Assembly (NCBI RefSeq): GCF_964204645.1
Contig: NC_134028.1
Location: 19,413,653-19,477,652, forward strand
DNA: 64,000 bases
Direction of reading: 5' to 3'
Source: Tubulanus polymorphus
Lineage: Eukaryota; Animalia; Nemertea
The notes under the pieces are model-generated. The model was given only the letters and a program-made list of their open reading frames with translations. It was not told where the DNA came from and did not search any database. Shown one piece after another: positions 1,992-43,220 of this stretch; the stretch's first letter is position 1; each line of letters begins with the position of its first letter. The position numbers were made by a program, and so were the translations under genes.

Positions 1992-2049
1992 TTTAATGTG
2001 GCAATCATAGCCCACATGCTACTCGTGAAGAATGACCAAAGGCCACAGC

Positions 2050-8207: not shown

Positions 8208-8432
8208 TATTGGGGTGATAAATTAGTAGTTTGCATAGAGGGAGGGAAGCCAGAGTTCAGGGCAGTGGCTGAAGTTAGTAAACAACCTACGTAGATGCTT
8301 ACGTCGCACACAAGACACTGAATAGAAGATAGGTGAAAGTGAAGTGAGTATCTGCGTAGGGTTGCTGGTTATAGCGGCAGCCTTGAGCTCTGGTATGGCT
8401 AGGAAGTAAACAAGTAATAAACTCGTGACGTA

Positions 8433-8699
8433 AGTAATAGGGATAATAGGCTTTCAAGCCAAAGGTCGAACGGTCGAGCTCGTAAAAAATGAAAAACATA
8501 AAAATAATTACAATTTCTACTTGAATTACTCGCGAAACTCATAAAAATGAAAAATTAATTCTCACACGCTCGAATTAATTTTTCATTTTTATGAGTTTCA
8601 CTCCTAATTCAAGTAGAAATTGTAATTATTTTTATGTTTTTCATTTTTACTCACCCGCCCGTTCAACCTTTAGCTTGAAAGCCTATTATCCCTATTACT
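8433..8699. repeat. Left terminal hairpin of the Polinton (267-bp imperfect palindrome)
   Basis: Begins AGTAATAGGGATAATAGGCTTTCAAGC and ends GCTTGAAAGCCTATTATCCCTATTACT; arms pair to a loop near 8560-8572. Confidence 0.92.
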
Positions 8700-8868
8700 C
8701 TTAAAATATTCATATATATGAATAAAATATAAATCATTGAACTTCTAAAATCAATTTTAATAAAAAATATAGTATTAAAATGGAAGCAAATAAATACTAC
8801 TGCCCAACATGTAATATCGATATAGATAAATCCCAAAAAGCAAGACACAATAAAACTAGAACACATTT
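8700..8868 (+). repeat. Inner TIR segment, inverted copy of 25641-25794, including the first ~29 codons of PolB
   Basis: ATG at 8780 reads MEANKYYCPTCNIDIDKSQKARHNKT, the same as the PolB N-terminus. Confidence 0.92.
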
Positions 8869-9737
8869 GTTTTTAATCCAGTTGGCGGACGTTAGCGAAT
8901 CACAAATCTCATAATTTACAAGTATCAACGCGCTTTTTAGATGTTTCTGGACAATTAAGCTCTAACCAATCAAAAGTCTCATAATTCGCAAGTCTCAACA
9001 CACTTGTTCTAGATGTTTCTGAGCATAGAATAGTATAAATAGGCGCGCACATCAGACGCTTAACAGAGCTATAGAATAAATCTATAAATTCACAGCTGTT
9101 ACAGCTGTTACTATAACGCCGAGATATTATGAATCATAATCAGAAACGTGTAGAATATTCTAGAAAGGCGCGCCGGAACTAGATGACGTGGCATAATCAA
9201 CGACGTGTTCATTCTAGAAATCACCCCCGGAAATGGATATACGCTGTAATATTGTGCTCAGGATATTCTATCTTTCGAAACGAAATAAGGAGTTTATAGT
9301 TTACAATTATAAATCTAAATGTAAGTACTGTTTGTTGTAGTTGTTAGGGCTATTAAATATGAAACCTTTAGATATATTTAAGCGTATTTAGTATATCTTT
9401 TAGATAGTTAGAGTTACCGCTAATATCTTTTAGATTAATAAAAAGTCATACGCATCAAGAAGCGATAGAGAAACTCAAGACTGAGGAATCAACAGCAATG
9501 GATATCAAACCAATAGAATCACCAAAAGATCGAAGAAGAAATATAAGAATTTCAAAAACATTAAGACTCCAATGATTAAGTTTAACATTTATTGATGTAG
9601 TTAAATATTTACCAGCAATTGAAAAAATGTTTGTAATTATAAATTGTATTTATAGAAATCAAATGATGTATTAGAAGAAATGACTGAACAACTTGTATAA
9701 TGTATTGTGTAAATCTGATTTGTGAATTTTTATGTTC

Positions 9738-10056
9738 AGTCGTTTCTATTATGTTTAACGCATGCGCATTGATCAAAACCGGCCATAAATGGCCGCATGT
9801 GACACATGTAACGCATGTGACGAGAACATGAATGCGTTTGAATTTTCTATATTCAGTTGTTTCTATTTTACAGAATTTATAGAATGAATATACAATTATG
9901 ATTAACACATGTGCATTAAGCAAAACCGGCCATAAATGGCCGCATGTGACGCATGTAACGCATGTGTTGTTTCTATTTTACAGAATTTATAGAATGAATA
10001 TATAATTATGATTAACGCATGCGCATTAAGCAAAACCGGCCACAAATGGCCGGCCG
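9738..10056. repeat. ~110-bp direct repeats in the Polinton non-coding region
   Basis: Three copies of TTAACRCATGYGCATT....AAAACCGGCCAYAAATGGCCG (near 9755, 9902, 10012). Confidence 0.8.
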
Positions 10057-10339
10057 CTTGTATTATTTAGATATCAAGGAATCGAAAAAACTTATCAAAA
10101 GCAGCGAGGAATGAAAAAGGATGACGTTGGTCGAAGAAATGGAAGAGGATTCTAAAATTATTAACCAATTTAGTAAAAAATATTTTTATTTATTTATATT
10201 TTGAATAGATCCGAATAGAAATTCTTTAAATTCAAATAGCTAGTATCAGTAGTCAATACTAGAATTCTTTAGCTTTAACTATCTAGTATCATTTGAAGAA
10301 TACTTATAATACTATTTTTATTAAATTTCTCTAATATAA

Positions 10340-10945
10340 ATGTCAAAGAAATCGAATAAGAATAATATTAAAGTTGAAAAAACTTTGGAAGATTTAGGTC
10401 TAACAGATGATAATGATAATGTGGCAACTAAATGTGATAATAAAATTGATAGTGATATTGATTATGAATACTATTTATATTGTAAGCATCATCTAGAACT
10501 ATTGATTGCGAGTGGAAAAACTAAAGAGTTTATTGGTAAAACAATAACTTTTCAAGAATTAGATAATATGAATAAAGAAAAAGTAATAAAATATTTTAAG
10601 ATTTATGAAGAGGCAAGATTATCTAAAATAAATGATTCTATTTCTAATGGTATTGTCAAATGTTATTCAAAGTTATGTAACCAGTTAATACCAATTGATG
10701 ATGACAATAAATTATATAATGATTTGAAAAATGACTATTTAGTTATGACTGAATTACAAAAATGGGTTGGATATGCTTCATTTCAATTAGGATCGGTTAT
10801 GACATTAATTTCTACTGGTGTCATAACATTTTCGAATATCAAACCTATGGAATATAAATCAGGTAAGAACGAAACAGATGTACTACAACCAAACAGTGAA
10901 ACAGAAAATGAATCAGAACAAAAATTAACTAAAATAAATGAGTGA
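10340..10945 (+). CDS. Polinton hypothetical protein (201 aa)
   Basis: Intact ORF with TAAATG start, overlapping the next gene; function not recognised. Confidence 0.8.
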   Translation: MSKKSNKNNIKVEKTLEDLGLTDDNDNVATKCDNKIDSDIDYEYYLYCKHHLELLIASGKTKEFIGKTITFQELDNMNKEKVIKYFKIYEEARLSKINDSISNGIVKCYSKLCNQLIPIDDDNKLYNDLKNDYLVMTELQKWVGYASFQLGSVMTLISTGVITFSNIKPMEYKSGKNETDVLQPNSETENESEQKLTKINE

Positions 10946-11309
10946 TGGAGTTAAGAAAAAGGCTAGATCCGAGAAACAAATTAAATGGGCAAGAGAATTA
11001 GGTAAAAGATCTTCAGAATTAAAAAAAGCTAAGAAAAAGAAATTAACTGATATAAATGAATCACCTGATGGTGCCGTACAGCACCCACACGGTGGTATTG
11101 ATTCAAATAATAATCCATCTAATTCTTCTAATGCTGGAAGTAATTATAAATTATATATTACAATTGGATTAGTAACACTTATTATATTATCCGGTGTAAT
11201 ATATAAATCAAAATTCAAATCTGATGATAAAGATGATTCCGATGATAAACCTATCATACCAGAAAATAAATCAAATGAAACTAAATCTAAATTATTATTA
11301 ATGGATTAA
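10938..11309 (+). CDS. Polinton small protein, basic N-terminus and one predicted TM helix (123 aa)
   Basis: LYITIGLVTLIILSGVIY hydrophobic segment; TAAATG start. Confidence 0.75.
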   Translation: MSDGVKKKARSEKQIKWARELGKRSSELKKAKKKKLTDINESPDGAVQHPHGGIDSNNNPSNSSNAGSNYKLYITIGLVTLIILSGVIYKSKFKSDDKDDSDDKPIIPENKSNETKSKLLLMD

Positions 11310-11312
11310 AAT

Positions 11313-12428
11313 ATGATGAAAAAAGAACAATATTTAAGAGCGTTATATTACAACCCAGAAAGTGAAGTATCATATTCTAACGTTTCAGAATTATGGAATA
11401 AAATTAAATCTGATAATAGCAATGGTGCCGTACGGCACCCACACGGTGATATAAAATATAGTGAATTAAAATCATGGTTACAAAATCAACCCACATATCA
11501 AATTCATAAAAAGATGGATAAAAAATATTTAACAAGAAAAGTAATGGTTTCATATATTGACCAACAATGGCAAGCTGATTTAATTGATATGAAAAACTTA
11601 GAAGAATATAACAAAGGATATTTTTGGATACTGAATGTTATAGATATATTCAGTAGATACGCATGGAGTATCCCGATTAAAAATAAAACTGGTATAGAAG
11701 TTACAAATTCTTTCAAATTAATATTTAAAGAAGCTATCCCAGATAAAATACAATTTGATGAAGGTAAAGAATTTTATAACAAACATTTTAAAAAACTATT
11801 AACTGATAACGATGTAGAATATTTTTCAACACATTCAGATAAAAAAGCATCTGTTATAGAAAGATTTAATAAAACATTGAAAACTAGAATGTGGAAATAT
11901 TTTACTGCTAACGAAACATATAAATATATCAATGTATTAGATGATTTAGTTAAAGGTTATAATAATTCAAAACATAGTTCTATAAATATGAAACCTATAC
12001 AAGCTAGAAAAGAAGAAAATTCAGAAATAGTTTGGAATAATTTATATGGAGCATTTGTTACACATGATTTTGGAGAACCTAAATTTAAAATAGGACAACA
12101 TGTTAGAATTTCTAAATATCGAAAAACATTTTATAAAGGTTATACCCCAAATTTTACTGAAGAAATATTTAAAATTAAAAAGATAATATTAACTAAACCA
12201 TTTGTTTATAAATTGTTTGATTTAAAAGATGAAGAAATATTAGGTTATTTTTATGAACAAGAATTATCATTAGTACCAAATCCAGATGAAATAGAATACA
12301 AAATAGAAAAAGTATTGAAAACAAAAACATTACGCGGTAAGAAATATTCTCTGGTGAAATATAAAGGATATGATGATAAATTTAATGAATGGATTTTATC
12401 TAGTAAAATTAAAAGAATAAATGAATAA
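11313..12428 (+). CDS. Retroviral-like (rve/DDE) integrase with C-terminal chromodomain-like region
   Basis: WQADLIDM, IDIFSRYAW, IQFDEGKEF, ASVIERFNKTLK; C-terminal YKIEKVLK...LVKYKGYDDKFNEWI. Confidence 0.95.
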   Translation: MMKKEQYLRALYYNPESEVSYSNVSELWNKIKSDNSNGAVRHPHGDIKYSELKSWLQNQPTYQIHKKMDKKYLTRKVMVSYIDQQWQADLIDMKNLEEYNKGYFWILNVIDIFSRYAWSIPIKNKTGIEVTNSFKLIFKEAIPDKIQFDEGKEFYNKHFKKLLTDNDVEYFSTHSDKKASVIERFNKTLKTRMWKYFTANETYKYINVLDDLVKGYNNSKHSSINMKPIQARKEENSEIVWNNLYGAFVTHDFGEPKFKIGQHVRISKYRKTFYKGYTPNFTEEIFKIKKIILTKPFVYKLFDLKDEEILGYFYEQELSLVPNPDEIEYKIEKVLKTKTLRGKKYSLVKYKGYDDKFNEWILSSKIKRINE

Positions 12429-13035
12429 AGATTTATTTATATTTGAACCTCATAATATGTTAGTTACTGGAGTTACAAATTGTGGTTAAACACACTTCAT
12501 ATTATATTTATTAGAAACTATTTATAAGAATCATTTCGATAATATAATATTATTCTGCCCAACTTATGAAATGAATGAAACGTATAATAGAGATATAGTT
12601 TTTAAAGATAAAAAGTTTATTATATTAAATTCTAAAACAGTGAAAGATAATTTAGATAATTGTATAAAAATTGCATTAGATATTTATAAAGGATCAAATA
12701 CATTATTTATTATTGATGATTGCGCAAATTTACATGATTCTAAAATTAGAGAAAGTGAGTTATGTTATTTAGCTTTCTCTGGTAGACATTTTGGGATAAC
12801 AACATGGGTTTTAAATCAGAAATATAATTCAATTGTGAAAGATTTTAGAGAGAATATAAGATTTCTAGTTTTATTCTACAACAAAGATAGAAAATCTATG
12901 CAACAATCATTGGAAGAAAATCAAATTATACCTCCTGAATTACATGATGAATATATGAATAAATTAAAGAATAATAAAGGTTCCAAATTATTAATGAGAT
13001 TACAATTTCCATATGAATATAAATTTATAAAATAA
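12421..13035 (+). pseudogene. A32/FtsK-like genome-packaging ATPase with a stop codon in Walker A
   Basis: ATG 12421 reads MNKDLFIFEPHNMLVTGVTNCG*THF (TAA at 12487-12489), in frame with ORF 12571-13035 carrying LFIIDD (Walker B) and GRHFGITTWVLNQKY. Confidence 0.9.
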
Positions 13036-13079
13036 CTATTTCTATATCTATGTATTAGATATGTATTAGATATGTATTA

Positions 13080-13626
13080 TATACCTCCCCCTAATGTCTT
13101 TATTATCTTTAGTACTTTAGTACTTTTAGTACATAAAGAATAAATCTTTATTTTATTAATACTTTAAAAATAAAATAGAACTACTAAACTACTAAAGATA
13201 ATATAGACATAACAAACACACATAGATTTATTATTACTGAATCAAATATATATAATAAATATGTTAGATAAATAAATCTATGATATTTATTACATCTATA
13301 TGTGTTTGTTATATCTTTATTATATTTTATACTTTTAGTACATAAAGAATAAATATATAAATAATTTTTATAAATGATAAATCTATGATATATATAATAA
13401 ATATGTGTGATAAATAGATTTAATTATTGAAACAGTAATATATAAAATCCATCAGATGAATAAATATAATTATTGAAACAGTGTTATATATATATTTATG
13501 TCTTTATTGTCTTTAGTAGTTTAGTAGTTTTAAAAATAATTTTATTCACTACTTATAAAATAAAGATTTATTCTTTATGTACTAAAAGTACTAAACTACT
13601 AAAGACAATAAAGACACAAGGGGTAT
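13080..13626. repeat. Internal AT-rich inverted repeat between the two convergent gene blocks
   Basis: ~13085-13212 pairs with ~13497-13626 (e.g. TTTAGTACTTTTAGTACATAAAGAATAAATCTTTATTTTA vs TAAAATAAAGATTTATTCTTTATGTACTAAAAGTACTAAA). Confidence 0.8.
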
Positions 13627-13643
13627 TATATTCATATTTTAAA

Positions 13644-14843
13644 TTACTTTTCTGATTCTAATTCTGAAAACAATTTGCTCCATGCATCTCTTAATTCTTG
13701 CGATCTTCTTTCACCTAACAGTTTAAAATGATAACCATTACCATTCAAACCCTTAACCCAGAATTCATAAGTTAAATAAATATATTGGTTTAATTTGTCT
13801 TCACTTATATTTTTATATTCATTTTTTGCTTCATTTCTTATTTTATTTATAACATCCTGTGAAAAATCTTCATAACTGTAGTATTGAATTATTTCATCAA
13901 AGTTATCACTTATATTATCATTAGCAGCAACTTTTTTCAATTCTGTTAAAAAATCTCTACTTTTAAATTTGATGAAATAATATATACCCCAATAATTATT
14001 TAGATCAATTTTTATAATCGCCCGATAAATTTTAATATCTGATAATACTTGTTTTGGATTATTTCTTACATAATCGATAAAAATTGATCTATATAATTTC
14101 CTATGATCATTATTTTCGATATCAAAAAATACACTTGGTACTCTATAAAGGATATTTAAATCAGCAGCTTTTATTGTATGTTCAAAAGAATTATCATGTT
14201 TAATTCTATCTTTAGGTAATACAACAACATTACACTTTTCACATATATTTCTTTCTATATTATCCAAATGTATCTGTGTTAATTTATGCTTTGAAAAATT
14301 ACTACGACTTGTATATTTATCACATTCTTCACAATATTTATCTTCTTTAACATTATCATTATCAATTTCACTATCATTATCATTATTCTTATTTTTCTTA
14401 TGCTTGAGTGAATTAAGATGAGTTGCCCAATTCTTATAACTTTTATACTGTTTACATACGTCACAATATTTTTCATTTATCTTTTTTGATTCAATATCAT
14501 ATGTTGTAGAGGGTATATTATAAGATATATATCCTGTTACATCTTCTATTTTATATTCAATATCATTCTTATCTTCTACTTTAGTTTCAATATTATTACT
14601 ATCTTCTATTTTAGTTTCAATATTATCTTCTATTTTATATTCAATATCATTCTTATCTTCTATTTTAGGTTCAATATTATCTTCTATTTTTGTTTCAATA
14701 TTCTTATCTATTTTACTTATTCTATATTTGAATTGATTAAAGTAATCTCCAAAATACTTACTGTATTCATCATAAGGTAATATATAATATATATCTGATA
14801 TCATTTCACTTGGAGTTTGTATTTCATATATTCCACCTTCCAT
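13644..14843 (-). CDS. Zinc-finger protein (three CxxC...H...H fingers) with KIED repeats (399 aa)
   Basis: YCDVCKQY...HLNSLKH, YCEECDKY...HKLTQIH, CEKC...HDNSFEH; tandem IE(T/Y)KIED units. Confidence 0.8.
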   Translation of the reverse strand: MEGGIYEIQTPSEMISDIYYILPYDEYSKYFGDYFNQFKYRISKIDKNIETKIEDNIEPKIEDKNDIEYKIEDNIETKIEDSNNIETKVEDKNDIEYKIEDVTGYISYNIPSTTYDIESKKINEKYCDVCKQYKSYKNWATHLNSLKHKKNKNNDNDSEIDNDNVKEDKYCEECDKYTSRSNFSKHKLTQIHLDNIERNICEKCNVVVLPKDRIKHDNSFEHTIKAADLNILYRVPSVFFDIENNDHRKLYRSIFIDYVRNNPKQVLSDIKIYRAIIKIDLNNYWGIYYFIKFKSRDFLTELKKVAANDNISDNFDEIIQYYSYEDFSQDVINKIRNEAKNEYKNISEDKLNQYIYLTYEFWVKGLNGNGYHFKLLGERRSQELRDAWSKLFSELESEK

Positions 14844-14873
14844 TTAATATAAGATTTTTTATTAGTTAAAATT

Positions 14874-16121
14874 TTAATACATAACACTATCTAATTGTGA
14901 ATTTACAATATTTAATTGCGCGTCAGATATAATATAAATATGCATTTTAAAATTTTTGATTCCTTTATTCTTTGTCATGAATAATTGTATTCCATCTTTA
15001 GTGTTCTGTAGTTTTTTTCCAGAACCATGTAATGAATTATCCTCTGTTGTTCTAAAATCTAACCATAATGCATATTTATTACCGGTATAATAATCAATTT
15101 GATTAATATTACAATTTTCAAATGATTTTACTTTTTCATTCATAAAATGTTTTTTAATTTCTACCCATTGATCAATCATTCTCATTCCTTGACAAAATAT
15201 TTTATTCGCTATTCCTTCGATAGTTATTTCTACTTTTGTTATTTCAGGATTATAATAATTATCAACATTTATTGCACCATTAGAATATGTTGCAATAGTA
15301 AAAAATATTAATATACCTTTAATAGATCTTCTAGGAAAGTTAATATTCTCATTAATTATTTCATCATTTGCATTAATAGTTACAGTTTTAAATTTATCAA
15401 TATAATCATATAATAATGAAAACCCTTGATTGTATTGAGTTTGAATTATACTTGAAATATTTTCATCAGTTACTGTATCATATTCTAAACATATATTCGA
15501 TAATTTATAACTCATATCTTTATTAACGCTAGATAATACAATTTCATTTACAGGAGCAAATGTTATCTCAAATATAATATCTTCTTGAATTGCGTATTTA
15601 TATAAAGGTGCATTATTATTTATCAATTCAAAGTCTAATGGAATTTTATATTTGCTTCCATATATACTTTTTATCAATTTATCTACATCATTAGTTAATA
15701 TTGCGCTATTAGCTTCTGATCTTAATTTATTTTGGTTTTCTGATTGAATACCCTGAAATATCATATTATTTCTATTTTCTTTAGTTAACCATAAATCTTT
15801 ATAATGTGAAAATAAATTATAATCATCTAATGAGAAAACTGTTTCTGGACCAATCTTTATTGTTAACTTTTTAATCAAATATCTTCCAACATTATCAACA
15901 ACATAATTATTATTATTACCGATTACTTTTATATCGGCTGATAAATAAATACTATTTGGAACATAAAAAGTATTTTGTGTTAATCGAGGGATTCTAACAT
16001 ATAAAGTTTCATCGGGATTAATATTTGAAGGGTTATGAGTAATTATATGATGTGATCTTTCTGCTTTAATAGCATTAGATATTCTATGATTCTTCGAAGG
16101 ACTTATATAACTCCCACTCAT
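14874..16121 (-). CDS. Probable major capsid protein (double jelly-roll type)
   Basis: 415 aa, beta-strand-rich pattern, motifs NPSNINPDETLYVRIP, NICLEYD, SIKGILIFF, ALWLDFRT...LHGSG that I associate with invertebrate Polinton/adintovirus capsids; fold not verified. Confidence 0.78.
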   Translation of the reverse strand: MSGSYISPSKNHRISNAIKAERSHHIITHNPSNINPDETLYVRIPRLTQNTFYVPNSIYLSADIKVIGNNNNYVVDNVGRYLIKKLTIKIGPETVFSLDDYNLFSHYKDLWLTKENRNNMIFQGIQSENQNKLRSEANSAILTNDVDKLIKSIYGSKYKIPLDFELINNNAPLYKYAIQEDIIFEITFAPVNEIVLSSVNKDMSYKLSNICLEYDTVTDENISSIIQTQYNQGFSLLYDYIDKFKTVTINANDEIINENINFPRRSIKGILIFFTIATYSNGAINVDNYYNPEITKVEITIEGIANKIFCQGMRMIDQWVEIKKHFMNEKVKSFENCNINQIDYYTGNKYALWLDFRTTEDNSLHGSGKKLQNTKDGIQLFMTKNKGIKNFKMHIYIISDAQLNIVNSQLDSVMY

Positions 16122-16162
16122 TTATTTAACAAAAAAAATTAATTATTTATTTTTAATCATGT

Positions 16163-17644
16163 TTACTTGATATTTTTTGATATCATATTTACTAAACCAA
16201 AAATAATAGCACTTACAACTGTAATTAAAAATAAAATAATATGTTCAGCAGCAAAGTTAATAATGTTTCCTGCTGATTTCAATATAAAACCAACAATTGA
16301 AGCAATAACTCCTGGTAAAGCTGCAGCAGATTTCTTTGATAGTTCCCATAAATATTTTGCTAATTTCTTTAAACCATCCTTAACTTTATCTTGTATAGAA
16401 TTATTACCTGGAGGTTTATCTGGTTTATTGGGAGTAGGAGTAGATTTTAAAGCATTTGATATTGCTAAACCAATTGTTGTAAATAACATAGTTACAGCTG
16501 TTACAATTGAAAGAATTGTTATACCTTCTAATTTAAATAATAATCTTATTCTGTCTTTTAATGATATTTCAGAATTTGGTTTAATCAACAAATCTTTAAA
16601 AATAACTTTTAATCTATTAATATTATAATCATATGATTTTAACAATGTATCTCTTTCTTCTTTTTGTAATTCTTTGTTATATTTTAAATCATCTATTTCT
16701 TTTTCTAAACGTAATTCTTTTTGCTTATATTCTATTTCATCAATTACTTGATGATCTAAATCAGACATTAATTGTTCTATTTCTTTATTTTTATCACTTA
16801 ATTCTTTTTCTAAAGTTCTAATTTTAATATCTCTTATACTTTTATTATGTACAATTTTATCAGCTTCATTTCTTATACTGATAATTTCTCTAATTGCTTT
16901 ATCAGAAAATATACTTAAAGCTTCTATTTCTTGATCTGTTGCATCAAGTAATCCATTCGGTAAAAGTTTTTCAGTTTGAACTTCAGTGTTTGATTTAAGT
17001 TTACTAGTTTTGGAAGTTATATTCTGTTCAGAAGTTGTTTCTGTTTCTAAATTATTATCGATTGTTTCAAATAATTCATTAATTCTTTGTTTAAATACTC
17101 TTTTATTTTTAATAATTTCTTCTTGTGTTACATCTTCTATTTCATTACTATTTCTTATTCTCTTAATTCTAGATAGTAATGAGTCAGACTTAAGCAAAGT
17201 TGATTTTGCTAATATTTTTTCTTCTTTTTCATAAGAGATATCAATATAATAATCATCTTTCAAACGATAATAATATTCACCATCTAAAAACTTTAATTCT
17301 TGTACTAAAAGTCTGGCACCTCTGTAATTTATATTATATCCAGAATCTTTAAATACATATTGAAACTTATATATAAATCCAATATTTTCTAAATCTTCCT
17401 TTTTTAAACCTTGATTTTCATTTTCAGGATTTATTCTCGATCTAGTTCTTCTATCAAATTCATCTGTTGATGGGGCTTTAGAACCACTATCTGCTAAATT
17501 AGAATTATATGCTGATTCATCATCATTATCAATATTAGTTTCATTAAGATTAGCGCCTGCATCATTATAATCATCATCAATATATCCTTCATTATTATTT
17601 CCCATGTCATCCAATGGAATATCTTCTCCACCTTCTACATCCAT
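16163..17644 (-). CDS. Acidic N-terminus / coiled-coil / C-terminal multi-helix membrane protein (493 aa)
   Basis: Heptad-rich middle; hydrophobic ITILSIVTAVTMLFTTIGLAI, AAALPGVIASIVGFIL and IILFLITVVSAIIFGLV. Confidence 0.8.
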   Translation of the reverse strand: MDVEGGEDIPLDDMGNNNEGYIDDDYNDAGANLNETNIDNDDESAYNSNLADSGSKAPSTDEFDRRTRSRINPENENQGLKKEDLENIGFIYKFQYVFKDSGYNINYRGARLLVQELKFLDGEYYYRLKDDYYIDISYEKEEKILAKSTLLKSDSLLSRIKRIRNSNEIEDVTQEEIIKNKRVFKQRINELFETIDNNLETETTSEQNITSKTSKLKSNTEVQTEKLLPNGLLDATDQEIEALSIFSDKAIREIISIRNEADKIVHNKSIRDIKIRTLEKELSDKNKEIEQLMSDLDHQVIDEIEYKQKELRLEKEIDDLKYNKELQKEERDTLLKSYDYNINRLKVIFKDLLIKPNSEISLKDRIRLLFKLEGITILSIVTAVTMLFTTIGLAISNALKSTPTPNKPDKPPGNNSIQDKVKDGLKKLAKYLWELSKKSAAALPGVIASIVGFILKSAGNIINFAAEHIILFLITVVSAIIFGLVNMISKNIK

Positions 17645-17660
17645 TTACATAATAAAAAAA

Positions 17661-19049
17661 TTAAAATTTAAAATATAATATTCCTCCGATTACAATTCCT
17701 ATACAAGTTATAGCTAATTTAGTATTTTCATGTGATTTATTATCATCATTTAGTTTAATTATATCATGTTGAATTTTATCAGTTTTTATATTTTCTGATG
17801 TATTATAATCTTTTATTTTAGAATCATTAACCAATTTAATATTCTTAGTTTTAGTTTCAGTTGATTGAATATGTTTTTTATTTTTTTCACCTTCCATTAA
17901 TTTTGGAGCAGTAATAATCTTTTTATTTATATCATTTAACCCAAATGAATTATTTATTGTTGCAGTTTTAATTAGATTATTATAACCAATTATATTTCCC
18001 ATCTTCAATACTAAATCATTAGAAATAATTAATAGATTAGGGCCTATACAATAATTAAGTCTTACATGAGATTTATCTAAATAATTTTGATATCTTATAA
18101 TGTTTTCTGGAATCGATCTATTTTTATCATTATGTATGGAATCTTCAAATAATACTTTAAATTGTTTTTGTGTATCGAATGATGTATTCAAATTTCGAAT
18201 TATCGGTGATCTTGTTTCAACTTGCGCACCTAAAATACAAATTAAATAAGTTCTAATAGATTGATTTATTCTTTCTATACCTGATTTAGTAAAACCTTCA
18301 CTATTTTCTAAAATAAAATAAACCCAACCATTATTGTTTTCTTGTTTTAAATGATCATAAAATTTCGGTAATTTATTGAAATTTAATGTTTCTAAATCCT
18401 TTGTTTCTATTTTACCATAACCTAATTCATTATTATAGATATTATAAAAACTATTAGATGGTATGGGAAGTGCACAATATTCTGCAATCTTTCTAGGGCA
18501 TGGAAGTGATCTTATTGTTCCAATTTTTGTTCTAAAATCAGAATTATTTATATCTATATTAAATTCATTGCAAATTTTATAAAACTTTGATAAATTAATA
18601 TTATTATCTAATTCTTTGAAATACCTAGATCCTGGTAAAGCGCACTCTAATTCATTTAATATTATTCTGATTTGAAAGTATGTATGAAATCTAAATAAAC
18701 TTTGAATTAATTTATATTTAGAATTATTCAAATGATCATTCCAACTAATTCCACATCCTGTTGTTGCACAATAAACAGCAAAATTTAATTGATTCTGCCA
18801 ATACTTCATATTAGATTTTAATAACCATTGTTTTTCATCTTTCAATTTTTTAAAATTAATTAAATATACATGAAATATATTTTCCATCTTTGCATTAAAA
18901 TTATTAGTTTCAGTAACATAAATATATAAATCAATTAATGAATCTAAAACTTCATTTCTATATGTAATATCTTCATTAAAATCTATTGCTGGAATATTAT
19001 ATTTAATTGATTTATTATATTGGAAAGCTTTTGGAAAACTATCTACCAT
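17661..19049 (-). CDS. Polinton hypothetical protein with C-terminal membrane anchor (462 aa)
   Basis: Intact ORF; WQNQLNFAVYCATTGCGIS and SIRTYLICILGAQ blocks; terminal LAITCIGIVIGGILYF. Confidence 0.8.
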   Translation of the reverse strand: MVDSFPKAFQYNKSIKYNIPAIDFNEDITYRNEVLDSLIDLYIYVTETNNFNAKMENIFHVYLINFKKLKDEKQWLLKSNMKYWQNQLNFAVYCATTGCGISWNDHLNNSKYKLIQSLFRFHTYFQIRIILNELECALPGSRYFKELDNNINLSKFYKICNEFNIDINNSDFRTKIGTIRSLPCPRKIAEYCALPIPSNSFYNIYNNELGYGKIETKDLETLNFNKLPKFYDHLKQENNNGWVYFILENSEGFTKSGIERINQSIRTYLICILGAQVETRSPIIRNLNTSFDTQKQFKVLFEDSIHNDKNRSIPENIIRYQNYLDKSHVRLNYCIGPNLLIISNDLVLKMGNIIGYNNLIKTATINNSFGLNDINKKIITAPKLMEGEKNKKHIQSTETKTKNIKLVNDSKIKDYNTSENIKTDKIQHDIIKLNDDNKSHENTKLAITCIGIVIGGILYFKF

Positions 19050-19065
19050 TTATATAACTAAAAGA

Positions 19066-19500
19066 TTAATAATCAACTAATTCTTTTAATAATTTATCTT
19101 GTTCTTCAACTGTTATATGACCATTTAAACTTATTATATAATCTAGTGTGTTCTTTAATTTATTAATTTCTTTTATATTAGTTTTAATTTTTTCTTTATT
19201 ACTTTTTATATTTAATTTTGAACTTATACCAGTTAAAACACTTGAACTTAATCCTAATACACCAATTGATATAGCTAAAGGTGTTAATGGACTGAATATT
19301 GCTAAAAATGTTATTACAGAACTAATTGTAACCGAACCACTTATAATCAAATAATATATAATTTTACTTTTTAAATATTTTTTCTTTTTTATCTTTAAGT
19401 CACTTTCAAATTCTAATATTTGTTTTTCTAAATATGTTTTTAATTTAGTTTTATTTATATCATGAGGAATAATATCAATACTATCAACTTTATCTTCCAT
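19066..19500 (-). CDS. Two-TM small membrane protein (144 aa)
   Basis: Two adjacent hydrophobic helices between coiled segments. Confidence 0.75.
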   Translation of the reverse strand: MEDKVDSIDIIPHDINKTKLKTYLEKQILEFESDLKIKKKKYLKSKIIYYLIISGSVTISSVITFLAIFSPLTPLAISIGVLGLSSSVLTGISSKLNIKSNKEKIKTNIKEINKLKNTLDYIISLNGHITVEEQDKLLKELVDY

Positions 19501-19519
19501 TTATTTAGAATAAAAATTA

Positions 19520-19942
19520 CTAATTAGTAAACTTATAAGCAACAAATATAACAATAACTGTTCCACCTAAAATCCATATTATTTCATATTTCTGTTGTTC
19601 TTTACTTGGGGTATAATAATCTGATAATTTAGGTTTGTATAGATGTAATTTTTCTTTATTTGTTACTGCGTTATATAAACTCATTGCATCATCAACTGAT
19701 TGAAAATCTCTATGTGAAATCTTCTGATCATATAATTCTTTATTGATGTAATCCATATAGTTTTGTCTCTTTTCTCTATATTCTTCTGCAGCTTTATTGT
19801 ATTTCTCTAACGCTAAGTTATGTCTTCTCTGTTCTCCTAATGAACTATTTTTATCAATATGTTTAAATAAATAACCACCACCAGTAAATGCTAAAGCGTT
19901 AACAATTGCCGATCCTATAATAGTTATAATTGCAGAAGCCAT
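19520..19942 (-). CDS. Small membrane protein with hydrophobic N- and C-termini (140 aa)
   Basis: MASAIITIIGSAIVNALAFTGGGYLF ... IIWILGGTVIVIFVAY. Confidence 0.78.
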   Translation of the reverse strand: MASAIITIIGSAIVNALAFTGGGYLFKHIDKNSSLGEQRRHNLALEKYNKAAEEYREKRQNYMDYINKELYDQKISHRDFQSVDDAMSLYNAVTNKEKLHLYKPKLSDYYTPSKEQQKYEIIWILGGTVIVIFVAYKFTN

Positions 19943-19966
19943 TTATTTAGCAAAAAAATTATGCAT

Positions 19967-20187
19967 TTATATGGGAGGAATATATTTTTGTTTTTCCAAA
20001 TAATCAATAGTTAAATTAGATAAAGTAACTGCTAATGTTAACTTTAAAATATCACTATATCAAATCTATCAACATTAACACTTCCCATTTTGAATACTTT
20101 TTTTAATACCATTGAATAACCAACCGTTCCAACTGATAGTAATGCGCCATTATATAATCCAGTTATTATCCACTTATTATCACTCAT
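19967..20187 (-). pseudogene. Small hydrophobic ORF absent from the ORF track, apparently frameshifted near 20055
   Basis: TAAATG start at 20187 reads MSDNKWIITGLYNGALLSVGTVGYSMVLKKVFKMGSVNVDRFDI, then continues in another frame as DILKLTLAVTLSNLTIDYLEKQKYIPPI*; fills the gap between neighbours. Confidence 0.65.
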
Positions 20188-20190
20188 TTA

Positions 20191-20529
20191 TTAATCAAAA
20201 AAATTACTATCTTCAAAATATTTAGTTAACTTATTTATGATTAATTCAACATTTATTTTATTACTAGTTTTATGATTATCATATATTTTGGATAATATGT
20301 TTTTAATATCTTCAATAATTCCATCTTCATTTAATTCATAATATTCTAAAGGTGATTTAATTAAATCAATTACTTTTTCTATATTATACTTTTCTTTATC
20401 AATCATTGATGCATTGTTAAATGATTTACTTTTTATATCAGTAATTACATCATTTAGTTTAATTCTCATTTCTTTACCATGTTTAAAATCAAATCCAAAA
20501 CATATACTCGGTCCAACAGTTATATTCAT
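20191..20529 (-). CDS. Polinton hypothetical protein (112 aa)
   Basis: Intact ORF, TAAATG start, tightly packed. Confidence 0.7.
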   Translation of the reverse strand: MNITVGPSICFGFDFKHGKEMRIKLNDVITDIKSKSFNNASMIDKEKYNIEKVIDLIKSPLEYYELNEDGIIEDIKNILSKIYDNHKTSNKINVELIINKLTKYFEDSNFFD

Positions 20530-20545
20530 TTATATAATGAAAAAA

Positions 20546-21307
20546 TTACTCTTTACATCTTATAACTAATTCATAAATTACAGGAAAATTATTTAAATCA
20601 ATTAAGTATCCATTATGATTTCTAATTTCTAATCTAAAATTATTAAAATGAGGAATGCAAGGTTTGAAATCACATTCTGTTAAATTATAATTTATTTGCG
20701 TTCCAAATTCTTTAACATTCTTCAATGGTAAAATGTTTAGTAAACCAGAATTACAAGTTATATCTTTAGTTGCTTCGAATGTTTTTGTAGGATCGATTAA
20801 ATTGCAATAAATATAAAAATGTGTGTAAGGTATTAAGTTTGGTGTAGTAGCGTCAATATTTGTAAAAGATCTATCTGGAATAATTCCTAACAGTTTAGCT
20901 ATAGGTTTTTTTACCATAAATTTATGTTTTTCACTATTAGACAACCTTATCTTTATTCTATCAGAACTCTCATTTTTTAAAAATATAATACTAAACCCAG
21001 AACTACTACCTAATTTGTGCCAGGCTTTTCTATTAATTTCTTGTGCTAATGTATCTAAATTATATAACCCTGGTTTTAAATATATATAGACCCATTCATT
21101 TTTATTTTTATTAAAAACTAAAAAGGCTCTATGTTCAATAGTTTTATTCGATATATTGTAAAAAGAATTACATAAACTTATATTTACTAATTTCAAATCT
21201 ACACAATTCTTGAATTCTCTATCTAATTGTACTAATAAATTATGTGATTTATAATTTGTAAGTTTTCTAGAATCAACAAATATTCTGTATTCTTTTAATT
21301 CCGCCAT
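20546..21307 (-). CDS. Probable minor capsid (penton, single jelly-roll) protein
   Basis: IFVDSR, LKPGLYNLDTL, FYIYCNLID, C-terminal FRLEIRNHNGYLIDLNNFPVIYELVI pattern typical of Polinton/virophage pentons. Confidence 0.78.
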   Translation of the reverse strand: MAELKEYRIFVDSRKLTNYKSHNLLVQLDREFKNCVDLKLVNISLCNSFYNISNKTIEHRAFLVFNKNKNEWVYIYLKPGLYNLDTLAQEINRKAWHKLGSSSGFSIIFLKNESSDRIKIRLSNSEKHKFMVKKPIAKLLGIIPDRSFTNIDATTPNLIPYTHFYIYCNLIDPTKTFEATKDITCNSGLLNILPLKNVKEFGTQINYNLTECDFKPCIPHFNNFRLEIRNHNGYLIDLNNFPVIYELVIRCKE

Positions 21308-21324
21308 TTATTTTACATATTTTC

Positions 21325-21666
21325 TTATTCGAAATCTATTTCATGGTGCCCTTTTTCATTCTTACCTTTGTATACGAAATAGAAATCTCCAGAACATAAT
21401 TCTTCTAGATCTTCACTTGATAATCTATGAAATCTATCTGGTAAATAAGTTCTGAATTTATATGTATTTCCTTTTAATCCTTCATATTCTAAATGAATTA
21501 CTAATTTATCTCCATATTTATTAGTAATTGTTTCAATGTTAGTAATTAAATATTTCTTGTGAATTGTTAACTCAGTTAGTTTTTTAAATTTATAATCTAC
21601 AGATTTGACGCTTGAAGTATCTTTAATTCTATCTAAGAATTCACTGTGTACTTGTTTACTCTCCAT
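21325..21666 (-). CDS. Small beta-rich protein next to PolB, possibly OB-fold/ssDNA-binding (113 aa)
   Basis: FKKLTEL...KYLIT...TNKYGDKLVIHL...YLPDRF...YKG; the function is inference. Confidence 0.6.
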   Translation of the reverse strand: MESKQVHSEFLDRIKDTSSVKSVDYKFKKLTELTIHKKYLITNIETITNKYGDKLVIHLEYEGLKGNTYKFRTYLPDRFHRLSSEDLEELCSGDFYFVYKGKNEKGHHEIDFE

Positions 21667-21694
21667 TTATTATACAAATTTTTATTGAAATTGA

Positions 21695-24600
21695 TTAACA
21701 CGTTAGAATCCTTTTCATAATCTCATTTTCTTTTGTTTCTTCTCTTTTGAATTTTATATATTCATCTAAATTGCAACCATAGGCGACTGTGCGGATTCCA
21801 TCATCTAAAATATATCTTTTATCATCAAATGGGTTTAGACTTATCTTCTCTATTTCTTCAATATACATTTCATGATCTTCAGATCTTAAACATTTCATCT
21901 TATGTTTTCTAACTTCTTCATTAAATATACAATTGATGTAATCTTTGAAATGAATATTCTTTTCAACAACGCTTTTGGTAATTCCTTTTAACTTTTTAGC
22001 TTCATGTTCTTTAGTTTTATATGAATACATTTTAGATCTAATACCAATGAACTCTATCATTTCTTCACCACCTAATTCATCCTTAAACTTCCCAGGAACT
22101 TTTTTATTATCATTGCTAAACAATTCATGATTTTTAGGATAGTTACTGAAATCAAAATGATGTTTTAATGTTTTTAAATCATCAGTTATGTTATCAGTTT
22201 TTATCTTTAATATGTAAGAATCTGTATCAAAATATAAGATTTCTATGTGTTTTTCCCCAAAATGGGGTTGTAGTATATTATAGTAAAATTTATACATTAG
22301 GAATTTTGATAATTTTAAAACTGCAGCTCCAACATAAATCGGTTTGTTAAATTTCATACTTGTTCTTCTCATTTTAACTGCAGCTAAATGTTCATCAAAT
22401 ATTCTGTTACCTATAAACTTAGGATATGATTGTAAATGCCTTATCCTTTTACCATTACTAACTAACTCAATATCATTTCTATTTCTAATATTTTCACAAG
22501 TCTTACCATAGAACGCATTATTCATTAACTTGAAGAAGTCTTTTTCAAAATCAGTTTTAGATTTAGTTCTCTGTGTAGTATTAAAATCTATATATTTTTC
22601 TAACCATTTAGATTGACTGAATGAAATATATCTATGTACTTTTTTAAATATCATTCCTTGTCTCAAATAAAACTTCAACATTCTATAATGCACAACGTAA
22701 TTATATTTATCTTCTTGAGTTACCATTAACTTTTCAGTATGAATATGATTTTCGGGTTTAATTCTTTTTTGATAATTTGATAATTCTTCATGTTTAACAG
22801 TTTTATGTTCGGGACAATATGCTAGATTTCTAGATTTGAATTTAATATTTTCAGGGTATTCTAAATCTACAACGAAGAAGTAACCAGTATCTGAATCATC
22901 TGCAATATCTAGGATTCTTTTCTTCCAATCAAATTTATCAATTTGTAAAACTTCAGTTATTTCAAACATCCCATAAGGTTGTGGTTCCATTATTGCCCAA
23001 CCATAAAGATTATTTGCATCTATGTATAATAATTTATATCCAGGATTATCATTTACATTGAAATATCTATCACCCAATACACCTGAAACACCTCCTCTTA
23101 TAGATTTTTCAAATAATAGTAATTGATCTATATTTGTTAACAAATCCATTTTTATATCTGTAAATTTTAATCCACAATCCCATGTTAAACCTGGACTAGA
23201 ATAACAAAGACATGGATCAATGTTAAAATATTTTAGGTTTACATCTCTAAACCTTTCGAATATATCGGTTAATAATAATACATCTGATTTTAAATATAAA
23301 TCTACTAATTGCCCATGATTTTCTATTTTGAAATGATTCCAAATATTCAATGTTCTATTATAGACTTCATCTTTAACATATTCATTTTTTAATTCATCAT
23401 AAAATTGTTCTTTCAATAATTCAGTTATTTTAAAATCATTATGATTTTTATAGAAAGAATATGGAATTGCTCCTTTATATCTCATTAATTTAAAATCATC
23501 ATTATTTGGATAGTGTTGCTTTAATATTTTTAATTCATCATCAACTAATGATTTTGATAAGTTATCTAATGAACTACTTAAAAATCTATACGAATCTATA
23601 AATCTTAAACACCCAAATTGGAATGATATATAATTCTCAGATGTTTTAGCTAACATTCTAAATTTATAAGTTGGTATTTTATCTTTTGATCTATTTGAAT
23701 TTAATATTTCTGTTTCATTATTGATTTTTTCTATTTTATAACATAGCTGTTTGATAAATAAATGTGCATCATATCCTGATAGATTATGAAATATAACTGG
23801 TACAAAGTTAATTTTCTTAGCTTGTAAGTTACAATTCTCATGTGCAGCGCCTCTAAACTTTCCATTCAAATGATCATGGTCTCTTACTTTTTTATCTTTA
23901 TAATTAAATATCTTTTCACAATAATAACATTTATCTGCAAACGCAAATTCTTCTTTATCTTCTTCTGTCATTATAATTTCTATATTTTTATTTAACTTTT
24001 CATTAAATCTTATTTCATATTCAATTAATAAGTCACAAAAATGATTGATAACATTTTCATTTCTATAATGATAATATTCACTTTTAATTAGTTCTGGATA
24101 ATTAGATTTAATATATAACCCGAAAGCTGCAGCTGATTGATGAATCTTTTTAATTGTATTTGTTATTGGTGGTTCTTCTGAATAATCACTTTCATTAGAA
24201 TTTAATTTCTTTCTTTTATAATATATATCTTTTCTATCTTTATCTGTTAATTCTTTATTTAATGATTCAAAATCTCCATATATTACAAATGGTACTTTAT
24301 TTTTGTAATCATATTTTTTGAATTCTAATATTTTATCTTTTTCATTTGGTAAAACTAATTTACAATAATCATGATTATCACATAGTTGTTTATGATTTAA
24401 TAATGTACTTTCATTACTAAATTTATGTAAACATTTTCTACATAGATATATTTTATTATGGTGATCACTTTCTGTTCTAAAAAATAAATCTATTTGTTTA
24501 ATCCACATATAATGATTCTCATAATATAGTATATCTATAACATCATTTGAATCATAATCTTTTGATAGGTATAAAGGTTCTAATGTATAATGTTTTATGT

Positions 24601-25729
24601 TGTTACCTTTTGTATTTGGTAATTTGATTAAATCAAATACATTTATCTTTAAATTATTATCTCTTTCTATTTTTGGGATATTTTTAATTCTAACAGGATA
24701 CTTATCTATCTTATAATTACTTTCAAATGGTTTATAATGAGTTAATCTAAAACTATGTTGTTTATAATCTTCAACTGGGTGTAAACAACTTATAATTGTC
24801 CATAGAAAACATTTATTGTCAAAATTTTGTATATTTATTACACCATTAGTTTTAAATGGTAATTTAATATAACTTGTTCCATTTATACTATCATCTTTAT
24901 AATATGATAAATTATTTTCATCAATTGGTTTTGATTTAGTTAACTTATTATATTTTGTGTTATAAACATGTAAAGTTATAAATATTATCTCATCAAATAT
25001 TAAACCAGATCCTTCAAAATATTTCTCTTCTATTTTAGTTTTTATTTCATTATAACATTTATTTAATTTATCATCTATATGTTGTTTAGATATAATATGT
25101 TGTGAATGAGAATTTATATTATATATTGGTTTATCTTCAGATTTTATAAACTTTACTTTAACTGATATACTTATCTTAGGATATTCAACATCTGTAATTA
25201 TTTTTATTATTTCTTTCATATTTTCTAAATGTTTTTTATTTTCTTCTAATGTTTTTCCTTTATGAAATTTAAACTCGATAGCTGCTGGACCAATATCACT
25301 TTTAAATGCTTCGGTTATCTCTATATCTTTTTTATTATCTAATGAATTAATATAATTTCTTACATCTTCCATATATGGTCTTTTATTGTTTAATTTATTT
25401 TTTATTCTTTTAATTGTCTTCTGTTTCTTATCGTTATCATTATCAAAATAATCTTCACCTAAAATATCATTATTCTTATTTCTAATATGACTTATAGATT
25501 TTAAATGTTCTTTATAATATCTTTTATCACTGAATGATTGATTACATGTATCACATTTATATGTTTCCTTTTCATTCTTTAATTCTTCTAATTTAGTTTC
25601 TAATATATCATCTTTATATTCTAATTTCAATTTATTTTCTAAATGTGTTTTAGTTTTATTGTGTCTTGCTTTTTGAGACTTATCTATATCGATATTACAT
25701 GTTGGGCAGTAGTACTTATTTGCTTCCAT
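21695..25729 (-). CDS. polB: Protein-primed family B DNA polymerase with N-terminal C2H2 fingers and an endonuclease VII-like domain (1344 aa)
   Basis: Exo motifs YGDFES, FHNLSGYD, YLKSDV; pol motifs YIDANNLYG, KLMNNAFYGK, YFDTDS; CYYC...RDHDHLNGKFRGAAHENCN. Confidence 0.95.
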   Translation of the reverse strand: MEANKYYCPTCNIDIDKSQKARHNKTKTHLENKLKLEYKDDILETKLEELKNEKETYKCDTCNQSFSDKRYYKEHLKSISHIRNKNNDILGEDYFDNDNDKKQKTIKRIKNKLNNKRPYMEDVRNYINSLDNKKDIEITEAFKSDIGPAAIEFKFHKGKTLEENKKHLENMKEIIKIITDVEYPKISISVKVKFIKSEDKPIYNINSHSQHIISKQHIDDKLNKCYNEIKTKIEEKYFEGSGLIFDEIIFITLHVYNTKYNKLTKSKPIDENNLSYYKDDSINGTSYIKLPFKTNGVINIQNFDNKCFLWTIISCLHPVEDYKQHSFRLTHYKPFESNYKIDKYPVRIKNIPKIERDNNLKINVFDLIKLPNTKGNNIKHYTLEPLYLSKDYDSNDVIDILYYENHYMWIKQIDLFFRTESDHHNKIYLCRKCLHKFSNESTLLNHKQLCDNHDYCKLVLPNEKDKILEFKKYDYKNKVPFVIYGDFESLNKELTDKDRKDIYYKRKKLNSNESDYSEEPPITNTIKKIHQSAAAFGLYIKSNYPELIKSEYYHYRNENVINHFCDLLIEYEIRFNEKLNKNIEIIMTEEDKEEFAFADKCYYCEKIFNYKDKKVRDHDHLNGKFRGAAHENCNLQAKKINFVPVIFHNLSGYDAHLFIKQLCYKIEKINNETEILNSNRSKDKIPTYKFRMLAKTSENYISFQFGCLRFIDSYRFLSSSLDNLSKSLVDDELKILKQHYPNNDDFKLMRYKGAIPYSFYKNHNDFKITELLKEQFYDELKNEYVKDEVYNRTLNIWNHFKIENHGQLVDLYLKSDVLLLTDIFERFRDVNLKYFNIDPCLCYSSPGLTWDCGLKFTDIKMDLLTNIDQLLLFEKSIRGGVSGVLGDRYFNVNDNPGYKLLYIDANNLYGWAIMEPQPYGMFEITEVLQIDKFDWKKRILDIADDSDTGYFFVVDLEYPENIKFKSRNLAYCPEHKTVKHEELSNYQKRIKPENHIHTEKLMVTQEDKYNYVVHYRMLKFYLRQGMIFKKVHRYISFSQSKWLEKYIDFNTTQRTKSKTDFEKDFFKLMNNAFYGKTCENIRNRNDIELVSNGKRIRHLQSYPKFIGNRIFDEHLAAVKMRRTSMKFNKPIYVGAAVLKLSKFLMYKFYYNILQPHFGEKHIEILYFDTDSYILKIKTDNITDDLKTLKHHFDFSNYPKNHELFSNDNKKVPGKFKDELGGEEMIEFIGIRSKMYSYKTKEHEAKKLKGITKSVVEKNIHFKDYINCIFNEEVRKHKMKCLRSEDHEMYIEEIEKISLNPFDDKRYILDDGIRTVAYGCNLDEYIKFKREETKENEIMKRILTC

Positions 25730-25794
25730 TTTAATACTATATTTTTTATTAAAATTGATTTTAGAAGTTCAATGATTTAAATGAATATTTTAAG

Positions 25795-26190
25795 AGTAAT
25801 AGGGGTAATAGGCTTTCATATCAAAGGTTTAATGATCGAGTTCATTAATAACATATATTAAAAAACTATAATATATTTTCATAACCGCGTGCATTTCAGT
25901 TGAATAATAGAATAATTATTATCATTTGAATATATTTGATTATTTGAATTTGTGTATTGTAATTAAATCAATTGGTCGCGGAGCGGAGCGGTAGCGAAGT
26001 GGAGCGACCAATTGATTTAATACAATATGCTTTTTATATTATTGATATCTTAGAATAAATATTTAGTTTTGATATAAAATGCACGCGGTTATGAAAATAT
26101 ATTATAGTTTTTTAATTACTTTTAATATTTTGTTTTTTAATGGGCTCGACCGTTCGACCTTTGGTATGAAAGCCTATTACCCCTATTACT
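25795..26190. repeat. Right terminal hairpin of the Polinton (396-bp imperfect palindrome)
   Basis: Begins AGTAATAGGGGTAATAGGCTTTCATA, ends TATGAAAGCCTATTACCCCTATTACT; inner stem ATTAAATCAATTGGTCGC / GCGACCAATTGATTTAAT around a GGAGCGGAGCGGTAGCGAAGTGGA loop. Confidence 0.92.
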
Positions 26191-43215: not shown

Positions 43216-43220
43216 ATAGC

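Follow-up and report, generated by a model that had tools for sequence, protein, structure and literature searches.

A clade-conserved TAAATG start motif in an integrated Polinton of the nemertean Tubulanus polymorphus, a probable large-virus promoter

Introduction

Virophages can share their promoters with the giant virus on which they depend. This is established for mavirus and Sputnik, and in mavirus the late promoter of the helper virus CroV is found upstream of all genes (PMC6723459). A possible animal counterpart is described here: a Polinton-type element of 17,758 bp (8433..26190, 24% GC, ends AGT...ACT) in a 64,000-nucleotide stretch of the Tubulanus polymorphus genome (contig NC_134028.1, positions 19,413,653 to 19,477,652), herein referred to as the window. 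Nearly all genes of this element start in TAAATG. The motif is sharp, conserved in one clade and mostly absent from composition-matched relatives, and is best explained as a putative large-virus promoter carried by an integrated animal Polinton.

Mavirus resembles the element in several respects. Both are integrating, have a size of about 18-19 kb, encode an rve integrase, a DNA polymerase of family B (PolB), a capsid and an ATPase of their own but no RNA polymerase, and have one conserved motif ahead of essentially every gene (PMC6723459). The element differs in its host, an animal instead of a flagellate, in its motif, TAAAT(G) instead of the TCTA of CroV (PMC5294985), and in that no protease was found. 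For the element, a helper and reactivation are proposed.

Polinton-like viruses were also found in entomopoxvirus occlusion bodies (PMC11296320). AHEV_PLV1/2 and CBEV_PLV1 are, like the element, Polinton-like and proposed parasites of an animal poxvirus, but they are only 11-13 kb long, have a cysteine protease, and lack the rve integrase. Their link to a helper comes from co-occurrence in occlusion bodies and shared genes, and that of the element would come from its promoter. The element is also integrated at many sites. The main text of that study contains no promoter or motif analysis. Gezel-14T (PgVV), a Polinton-like virus whose promoter motif is also that of its giant helper, presumably produces monocistronic RNAs, but its host is an alga, its motif is the early AAAATTGA, and it encodes a tyrosine recombinase (10.1101/2022.07.28.501842). 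For vertebrate Mavericks, helper activation by iridoviruses was put forward as a hypothesis (PMC8097293).

No report of TAAATG promoters in Polintons was found in the literature covered, which largely excludes subscription journals. In the available main texts on adintoviruses (PMC8502044), a coral polintovirus (PMC11131425), egoviruses (10.1101/2024.03.23.586382), and mosaicism (10.64898/2026.10.13.758929), the word "promoter" is absent.

Start Motif in the Element

TAAATG was found at 13 of the 15 gene starts of the element, as compared with 36 of the 597 other ATGs (6.0%) in the same DNA (10300-25760; Fisher p=1.0e-13). An earlier note on this DNA had proposed the motif as a poxvirus-type late promoter and listed 13 starts; every one of them is an ATG preceded by TAA on the strand given, and the comparison of start with internal ATGs that the note suggested puts the enrichment well above background. 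The two exceptions it named were confirmed as the only ones: the integrase gene (start at 11313, TAAAAT-ATG) and the PolB gene (start at 25729, TAAA-ATG). Out-of-frame sense ATGs were found in TAAATG in 24 of 290 cases. When three bases were resampled from the upstream 30-mer of each gene in 100,000 trials, on average 1.3 and never more than 8 of 15 starts had the motif.

The motif is part of a longer signal. Across 67 start contexts, positions -18 to -12 form a near-pure A/T block, in which T occupies -12 in 90% and -13 in 76% of the contexts; a looser spacer and then A/T-A/T-A-TAAATG follow. Within the window, T is present at -12 in 12 of 13 TAAATG starts vs. 15 of 36 non-start TAAATG, and the all-A/T block together with this T in 9 of 13 vs. 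2 of 36.

This two-part geometry of an A/T block, T at -12, and TAAATG is that of vaccinia late promoters, which supports the poxvirus-type reading of the earlier note. In these promoters, TAAAT followed by G overlaps the start codon, and the tenth upstream base is a conserved T among other Ts (PMC11980589); the spacer is 5-7 bp (PMC5294985), and TAAA is read by the vaccinia polymerase itself (PMC12917281). In a fish poxvirus, TAAATG likewise marks late genes (PMC4542343). Both hallmarks of late promoters in poxviruses were found in the element: a start codon overlapped by TAAAT(G) and, 5-7 bp upstream of the motif, a core rich in T. The likeness to vaccinia post-replicative promoters includes a T-rich core 6-8 nt upstream with the strongest T 9-10 nt before TAAAT, and a TAAA(A)TG variant with an A-rich upstream region (PMC11980589; PMC12917281; PMC5294985). 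The peak T of the element is the ninth base upstream of TAAAT, the tenth being second. Unlike in vaccinia, nearly all genes, including those for replication, bear the motif, and its promoter activity is predicted.

A Kozak-like bias is ruled out: of 33 homologue-anchored starts, 30 have T at -3, where distant relatives have a purine (16 of 22 and 20 of 22). The motif is present on both strands, is independent of register, and can be embedded in the codons of an upstream gene, which is the behavior expected of a predicted DNA promoter tied to the start codon.

Distribution of the Motif in Relatives

Relatives were collected by a capsid alignment search, which resulted in 72 metagenome and 3 genome-collection loci (L001-L075). 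Sixteen loci with capsid identity of 49-77%, some of them near-duplicates, are herein referred to as close relatives; open reading frames (ORFs) of at least 120 aa were counted. As the earlier proposal implies, the motif is conserved in them regardless of gene order: of 64 ORF starts, 54 have TAAATG, and 48 of these also have T at -12; the count for other ATGs is 96 of 2,323. Among the 10 exceptions, five retain TAAAT or TAAAAT within 8 nt and three are internal ATGs of broken genes. Gene order and cargo genes vary among the close relatives, yet each gene has a motif of its own. Ten loci contain back-to-back gene pairs in which each partner has its own TAAATG, the two motifs being on opposite strands and 14-34 nt apart. 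In a capsid tree built by a quick method (38 rows), 14 of the 16 close relatives form one clade with the window (SH-aLRT 96). One cargo gene, located at L001:10343-10981 (-), encodes a deoxynucleoside kinase (PF01712, E=2e-31) and has its own TAAATG start.

Base composition was rejected as a cause of the motif. Three close relatives with 36-44% GC (L004-L006) keep TAAATG at 9 of 11 starts, and 26 AT-rich distant loci having the same core genes show it at only 4 of 56. The corresponding count for 29 GC-rich distant loci is 1 of 149. In total, the 59 loci other than close relatives have TAAATG at 12 of 214 starts, and seven of these 12 belong to L028, L029, L059, and L065. Viral contigs gave another 21 polymerase B loci, in which 9 of 212 starts have the motif; the 13 of these loci with less than 35% GC account for 8 of 117.

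A second occurrence was found in L138 (1-8742), a protease-bearing Maverick with a different gene content, where 7 of 8 ORFs start in TAAATG. The presence of the motif in L138, but not in relatives having the same core genes, fits adaptation to an outside machine. In L138 the protease is fused to the integrase; in its start pattern it is unlike eight other protease-bearing loci. Scans of viral contigs with the capsid, the capsid alignment, and the 140-aa and ATPase alignments gave no relative.

Other start-site preferences were also observed. TATATA-type runs are located at or right before the ATG in L046, L051, L127, L131, and L133; L022, L048, and L073 favor TA(n)ATG; and the GC-rich loci share GTTCAATAC upstream of the capsid gene. 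Separate Polinton clades may use separate transcription machines.

Genes and Upstream Tracts

Four genes are located on the forward strand: a gene of a conserved 201-aa family (10340..10945), a 123-aa gene (10938..11309), the gene for an rve integrase with a chromodomain (11313..12428), and the gene for an A32-like packaging ATPase (12421..13035). All of them start in TAAATG except the integrase gene, where TAAAAT is found within three bases of the ATG. At two junctions the upstream gene contains the motif in its final codons: that of the 123-aa gene is located in the 201-aa gene and that of the ATPase gene in the integrase gene; both upstream genes end in INE. The other genes are located on the reverse strand. 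Same-strand gaps range from -8 to 101 nt and do not exceed 41 nt at 12 of 13 junctions, in agreement with the close packing described earlier.

T tracts ending 6-8 nt before the T of TAAAT were found in seven genes, all on the reverse strand and all with TAAATG starts: the major capsid protein (MCP) of the double-jelly-roll type (14874..16121, T8), a 493-aa coiled-coil protein with a hydrophobic C-terminus (16163..17644, T7), a conserved 462-aa family with a C-terminal hydrophobic helix (17661..19049, short tract), a 144-aa membrane protein (19066..19500, T5), a conserved 140-aa family (19520..19942, T7), a truncated 47-codon gene with homologues of 75-78 aa (20044..20187, T7), and a 112-aa gene (20191..20529, T6). 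A tracts at about -18 to -12 precede the PolB gene (21695..25729, reverse strand, 1344 aa, A6, start TAAAATG) and, with TAAATG starts on the same strand, a 113-aa gene with a weak lead to single-strand-binding proteins (21325..21666) and a 399-aa zinc-finger-like gene (13644..14843). The T tract that had been assigned to the capsid/membrane block therefore stands for MCP and six more genes. The A tract is present in the three genes to which it had been assigned, but it is not limited to them, since it likewise precedes the 123-aa and ATPase genes and a 253-aa gene (20546..21307, reverse strand, TAAATG) for a candidate minor capsid protein.

Two genes are broken in the window copy. The ATPase frame of 204 codons has an in-frame stop at codon 23; intact homologues with the same TAAATG start were found in L001, L003, L009, L012, and L013. 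Intact homologues of the 47-aa gene with the same start are present in L001 and L004. The starts at 12421 and 20187 were accepted as real because these homologues begin at the same TAAATG.

Gene Content and Classification

The element is a Maverick/Polinton, having inverted repeats with AG...CT ends, a 6-bp duplication, PolB, an rve integrase, an A32 ATPase, and a double-jelly-roll capsid. The integrase was identified by PF00665 (E=7e-9) together with the chromodomain, and the ATPase by PF04665. PolB has polymerase motifs and its homologues carry PF03175 (protein-primed type), although PolB of the window itself has no direct PF03175 match at E<=0.01. It groups apart from the polymerases of the distant capsid relatives L016, L020, L042, and L045, which suggests module exchange involving PolB. 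One PolB homologue (P0130) bears intein/homing-endonuclease Pfam families.

The MCP model (pLDDT 84.5) matched capsids of PBCV-1, iridovirus, and mavirus in Foldseek with E from 5e-17 to 2e-11. The PBCV-1 and iridovirus capsids were on top; the mavirus capsid is similar only at the level of fold, below the capsids of nucleocytoplasmic large DNA viruses. The 253-aa protein is a candidate minor capsid (penton) protein by resemblance; it has no PDB match and its DUF5901 match is weak. The 462-aa protein gave a low-confidence model (pLDDT 59) with no fold, Atlas, or PDB match, and profiles of the 201-aa and capsid proteins found no PDB sequence match. SLATT-domain matches of the 144-aa protein (19066-19500, reverse strand) have E from 5e-5 to 5e-3, below the cut-off; SLATT membrane proteins are found in defense systems and in Polinton-like viruses.

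No match to an RNA polymerase or transcription factor was found among the window proteins in Pfam or NCBIfam, and apart from PolB the element has no ORF longer than 493 aa. The earlier statement that the element has no recognizable RNA polymerase of its own, a feature of virophages, is thus upheld, and it holds for transcription factors as well.

The element shares inverted repeats, the 6-bp duplication, AG...CT ends, a chromodomain integrase, and core genes with Mavericks/Polintons and adintoviruses (PMC8097293; PMC8502044), but its gene set is divergent, and the adenain-like cysteine protease that marks group 1 Mavericks and adintoviruses was found neither in the element nor in its 75 capsid relatives. 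In tblastn, the protease domain of L138 matched neither the element nor L001-L075, while it matched eight other polymerase B loci; the HW motif was found in none of the 15 window proteins. Assignment to Virophaviricetes is not indicated either, given the lack of a protease and a capsid resembling that of mavirus at fold level only. Elements outside the main Maverick groups were reported from octocorals, hydrozoans, and bivalves (10.64898/2026.06.19.733378), and the element may belong to such an animal lineage.

Borders, Copies, and Flanks

The AT-rich block at about 9-26 kb has 20-26% GC vs. about 40% in the flanks and is a single element. The target-site duplication GACGTA is found on the forward strand at 8427..8432 and 26191..26196. 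The terminal inverted repeats (8433..8868 and 25641..26190) are imperfect, with 96% match between 8727-8868 and 25641-25782. Their outer parts are palindromic: 8433-8699 and 25795-26190 each have an internal palindrome of their own, and the terminal motif is present in both orientations at both ends. These palindromes could fold into long hairpins or form a small non-autonomous unit. The left repeat also contains, at 8780-8868 and directed inward, a duplicate of the PolB promoter together with the first codons.

In a whole-genome run with the same species label, 1,143 loose-ended reads were found before 8433 and 1,059 behind 26190. The family has many insertion sites, since the loose read ends show low mutual agreement at both borders. 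An empty form is represented by 195 reads bridging 8425 to 26190; these may originate from other copies of the repeat hit by the insertion. About 0.7% of the bases read fall on a 20-kb stretch that includes flanks. Copies differ by several per cent and often diverge past 8734 (485 loose-ended reads). At 13170-14500, depth is about 5% of that in the rest of the element (23-35 vs. roughly 500-950, run X7). The zinc-finger gene and the adjoining repeat-rich spacer are a variable slot carried by a small minority of copies.

The non-coding stretch at 8869..10330 contains short repeats and is rich in CpG, with a ratio of 1.37 vs. 0.49 in the genes. It has what we take to be host-type motifs (CCAAT and ETS-, CRE-, NRF1-, and YY1-like). 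Run X4 has its depth maximum at 8992-10319 (1,800-3,600) and low depth in most viral gene bins (4-63), and runs X1-X3 show the opposite. The same region holds three 87-nt repeats, each with the palindromic GGCCATAAATGGCC.

A 59-bp tandem repeat family is located at 7659-8207, 30009-30323, and 30895-31881, in opposite orientation across the element and unrelated to its inverted repeats. The host flank contains a Pao retrotransposon and Gypsy-like fragments (34365-40430 and 43209-51745). BEL/Pao elements are metazoan, which points to an animal host.

Proposed Helper and Alternative Explanations

The compact signal of each gene is probably a promoter to which a co-infecting large DNA virus (Nucleocytoviricota) would supply the RNA polymerase. 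A poxvirus is the leading but unproven candidate for this helper, at somewhat below even chances, and another family of Nucleocytoviricota is a possible though less favored one. Without infection the genes would not be expressed; the post-replicative phase of helper infection would turn them on. Transcription would begin at the first A of TAAAT and yield near-leaderless mRNAs, perhaps with 5' poly(A) leaders, one per gene. Replication by the PolB of the element, packaging in its own capsid, and integrase-driven reintegration would follow, as in mavirus with CroV. The helper could gain access to a chromosomal copy through nuclear entry of viral factors or through excision after a first step transcribed by the host. 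The CpG-rich stretch at 8869-10330 might, as a guess, harbor this RNA polymerase II step.

Several points weigh against this explanation, or against its specifically poxviral form. The action of a cytoplasmic polymerase on a chromosomal copy requires an extra step, which is the weak one. The motif is also not exclusive to poxviruses: in giant-virus bin G035, which has a Capsid_NCLDV capsid (E=9.5e-59) and giant-virus genes, TAAATG accounts for 9 of 34 starts (seven of the nine with T at -12) and TAAAATG for 8 of 34, and in bin G019 TAAATG accounts for 6 of 15, although both bins were selected by a motif scan and represent only 39 kb and 22 kb. The initiator of yeast virus-like elements is TAAAN (PMC6211774). 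Neither the 14 window proteins searched nor 40 scans of ORFs of relatives gave a pox-specific Pfam family. Scanning viral contigs for the motif gave 51 loci (46 records counted) but no recognizable poxvirus-like record, and no helper was found; a Pox_Rap94 search gave no match anywhere, controls included, and is therefore uninformative. Whether the motif of the window and that of L138 arose once was neither shown nor rejected by the PolB tree, in which the one-clade test had a support of 48. On the favorable side, AATAAA was found 66 times within 14 ORFs vs. 66.7 expected (17 of them in PolB), a weak indication that nuclear polyadenylation signals are not avoided, which would fit transcription outside the nuclear RNA polymerase II pathway; this weak test had no working positive control, as host retroelement frames gave 3 vs. 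3.3.

The division into late (T-tract) and intermediate (A-tract) promoters suggested by the earlier note holds in part. The A type is retained in the ATPase gene (5 of 5 relatives) and the zinc-finger gene (2 of 2), but orthologues of the 113-aa and 112-aa genes switch between classes, and so do several capsid genes; among 13 capsid genes, the tract is T in seven, mixed in three, and A in three. Moreover, the A tract is located about 10-15 nt before TAAA, as compared with 15-19 nt in vaccinia intermediate promoters (PMC11980589). The AT-rich region upstream of PolB loosely fits an intermediate core (-26 to -13, spacer of about 12 bp), with the A tract nearer and with the T at -12 common to T-tract genes. 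A single promoter type with a variable A/T core would be as likely. For transcription by a pox-like helper as a whole, the motif, its geometry, its conservation in the clade, and the lack of a polymerase stand, and uniqueness of the motif to poxviruses does not.

Two further signals were analyzed. Depletion of the poxvirus early terminator TTTTTNT (7 vs. 13.8 in the window, 14 vs. 39.3 in relatives) was dropped as evidence because all A/T runs are avoided alike, also in relatives having no motif. Splice-donor depletion in ORFs gave no signal. Two G035 loci, L154 and L155, which are not poxviral, have a T run and TAAA(A)TG at many starts, and it is possible that G035 uses an undescribed late-promoter motif outside poxviruses.

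The best-surviving alternative, although unlikely, is a compact promoter of host RNA polymerase II, for instance with an initiator recognized by YY1, TBP, or another host factor, for which no helper is needed. Spread over many chromosomal sites would be simplest with nuclear expression, and the CpG-rich stretch with host-type motifs at 8869-10330 would suit it too. Of the 67 start contexts, 67% have G at +4, giving AAATGG, which we assume to be a YY1-like core; one third of the starts, however, have no G there. T at -3 is opposite to the purine of distant relatives, gaps of 14-34 nt leave no space for a TATA box (-25 to -30) on both strands outside coding sequence, and AATAAA is not avoided in the ORFs.

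It is also quite improbable that the helper is a cytoplasmic linear plasmid or sister element with a pox-related RNA polymerase. Such a system is known from yeast, where pGKL1/2 are linear AT-rich replicons, like the element, and their TAAAN initiator is read by a pox-related polymerase encoded on one of the elements, pGKL2 being the nearest parallel for such a helper (PMC6211774). Unlike the Polinton, they are cytoplasmic and capsid-less and need an upstream ATNTGA (PMC6211774), which is no feature of the 67 start contexts. No polymerase gene was found in the scanned ORFs of relatives, whose loci are fragments, and the literature covered reports none of these plasmids from an animal.

Two broken genes in the window copy and divergence of several per cent between copies would suit promoters that are mere relics of a helper-dependent ancestor, the family now being a transposon expressed by read-through or host transcription. 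This is very unlikely, because the motif is intact at nearly every start despite capsid divergence of 25-50%, reshuffled gene order, and new cargo genes, and its retention across divergent relatives and in new cargo argues for continuing selection.

Least credible is a translation signal, i.e., coupling of stop and start on polycistronic RNA or protection of the start by an in-frame stop: TAA is in frame with ATG and the genes are tightly packed, but TAA is never the stop of the upstream gene in the window (gaps of -8 to 101 nt), the motif is found on both sides of back-to-back pairs having no upstream ORF, TAA is favored over the other stops (29 TAA, 1 TGA, 0 TAG), TAAAT stays when the ATG is out of register (5 of 10 exceptions), and the fixed T at -12 is not accounted for.

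Implications for Animal Polintons

It has long been asked whether the Mavericks/Polintons of animals live as autonomous viruses, as transposons, or like virophages, as parasites of large viruses, and dependence on a helper was proposed earlier without promoter evidence (PMC8097293; PMC11296320). The sharp putative promoter signature described here, which is viral in type, specific to one clade, and part of a multi-copy element integrated in an animal genome, makes the virophage-like idea directly testable and predicts the kind of virus to seek in the host. Tentatively, a widespread lineage of animal Polintons that have no protease could consist of heritable provirophages whose helper is a poxvirus of aquatic invertebrates still to be discovered; they would stay silent in the germ line, be activated by the late machinery of the virus, and possibly serve as an inherited antiviral defense. 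Polintons could also be sorted from genomes only into helper-dependent and host-transcribed classes. If the proposed explanation is true, the start-codon motif of each Polinton clade would be a fingerprint of its helper virus.

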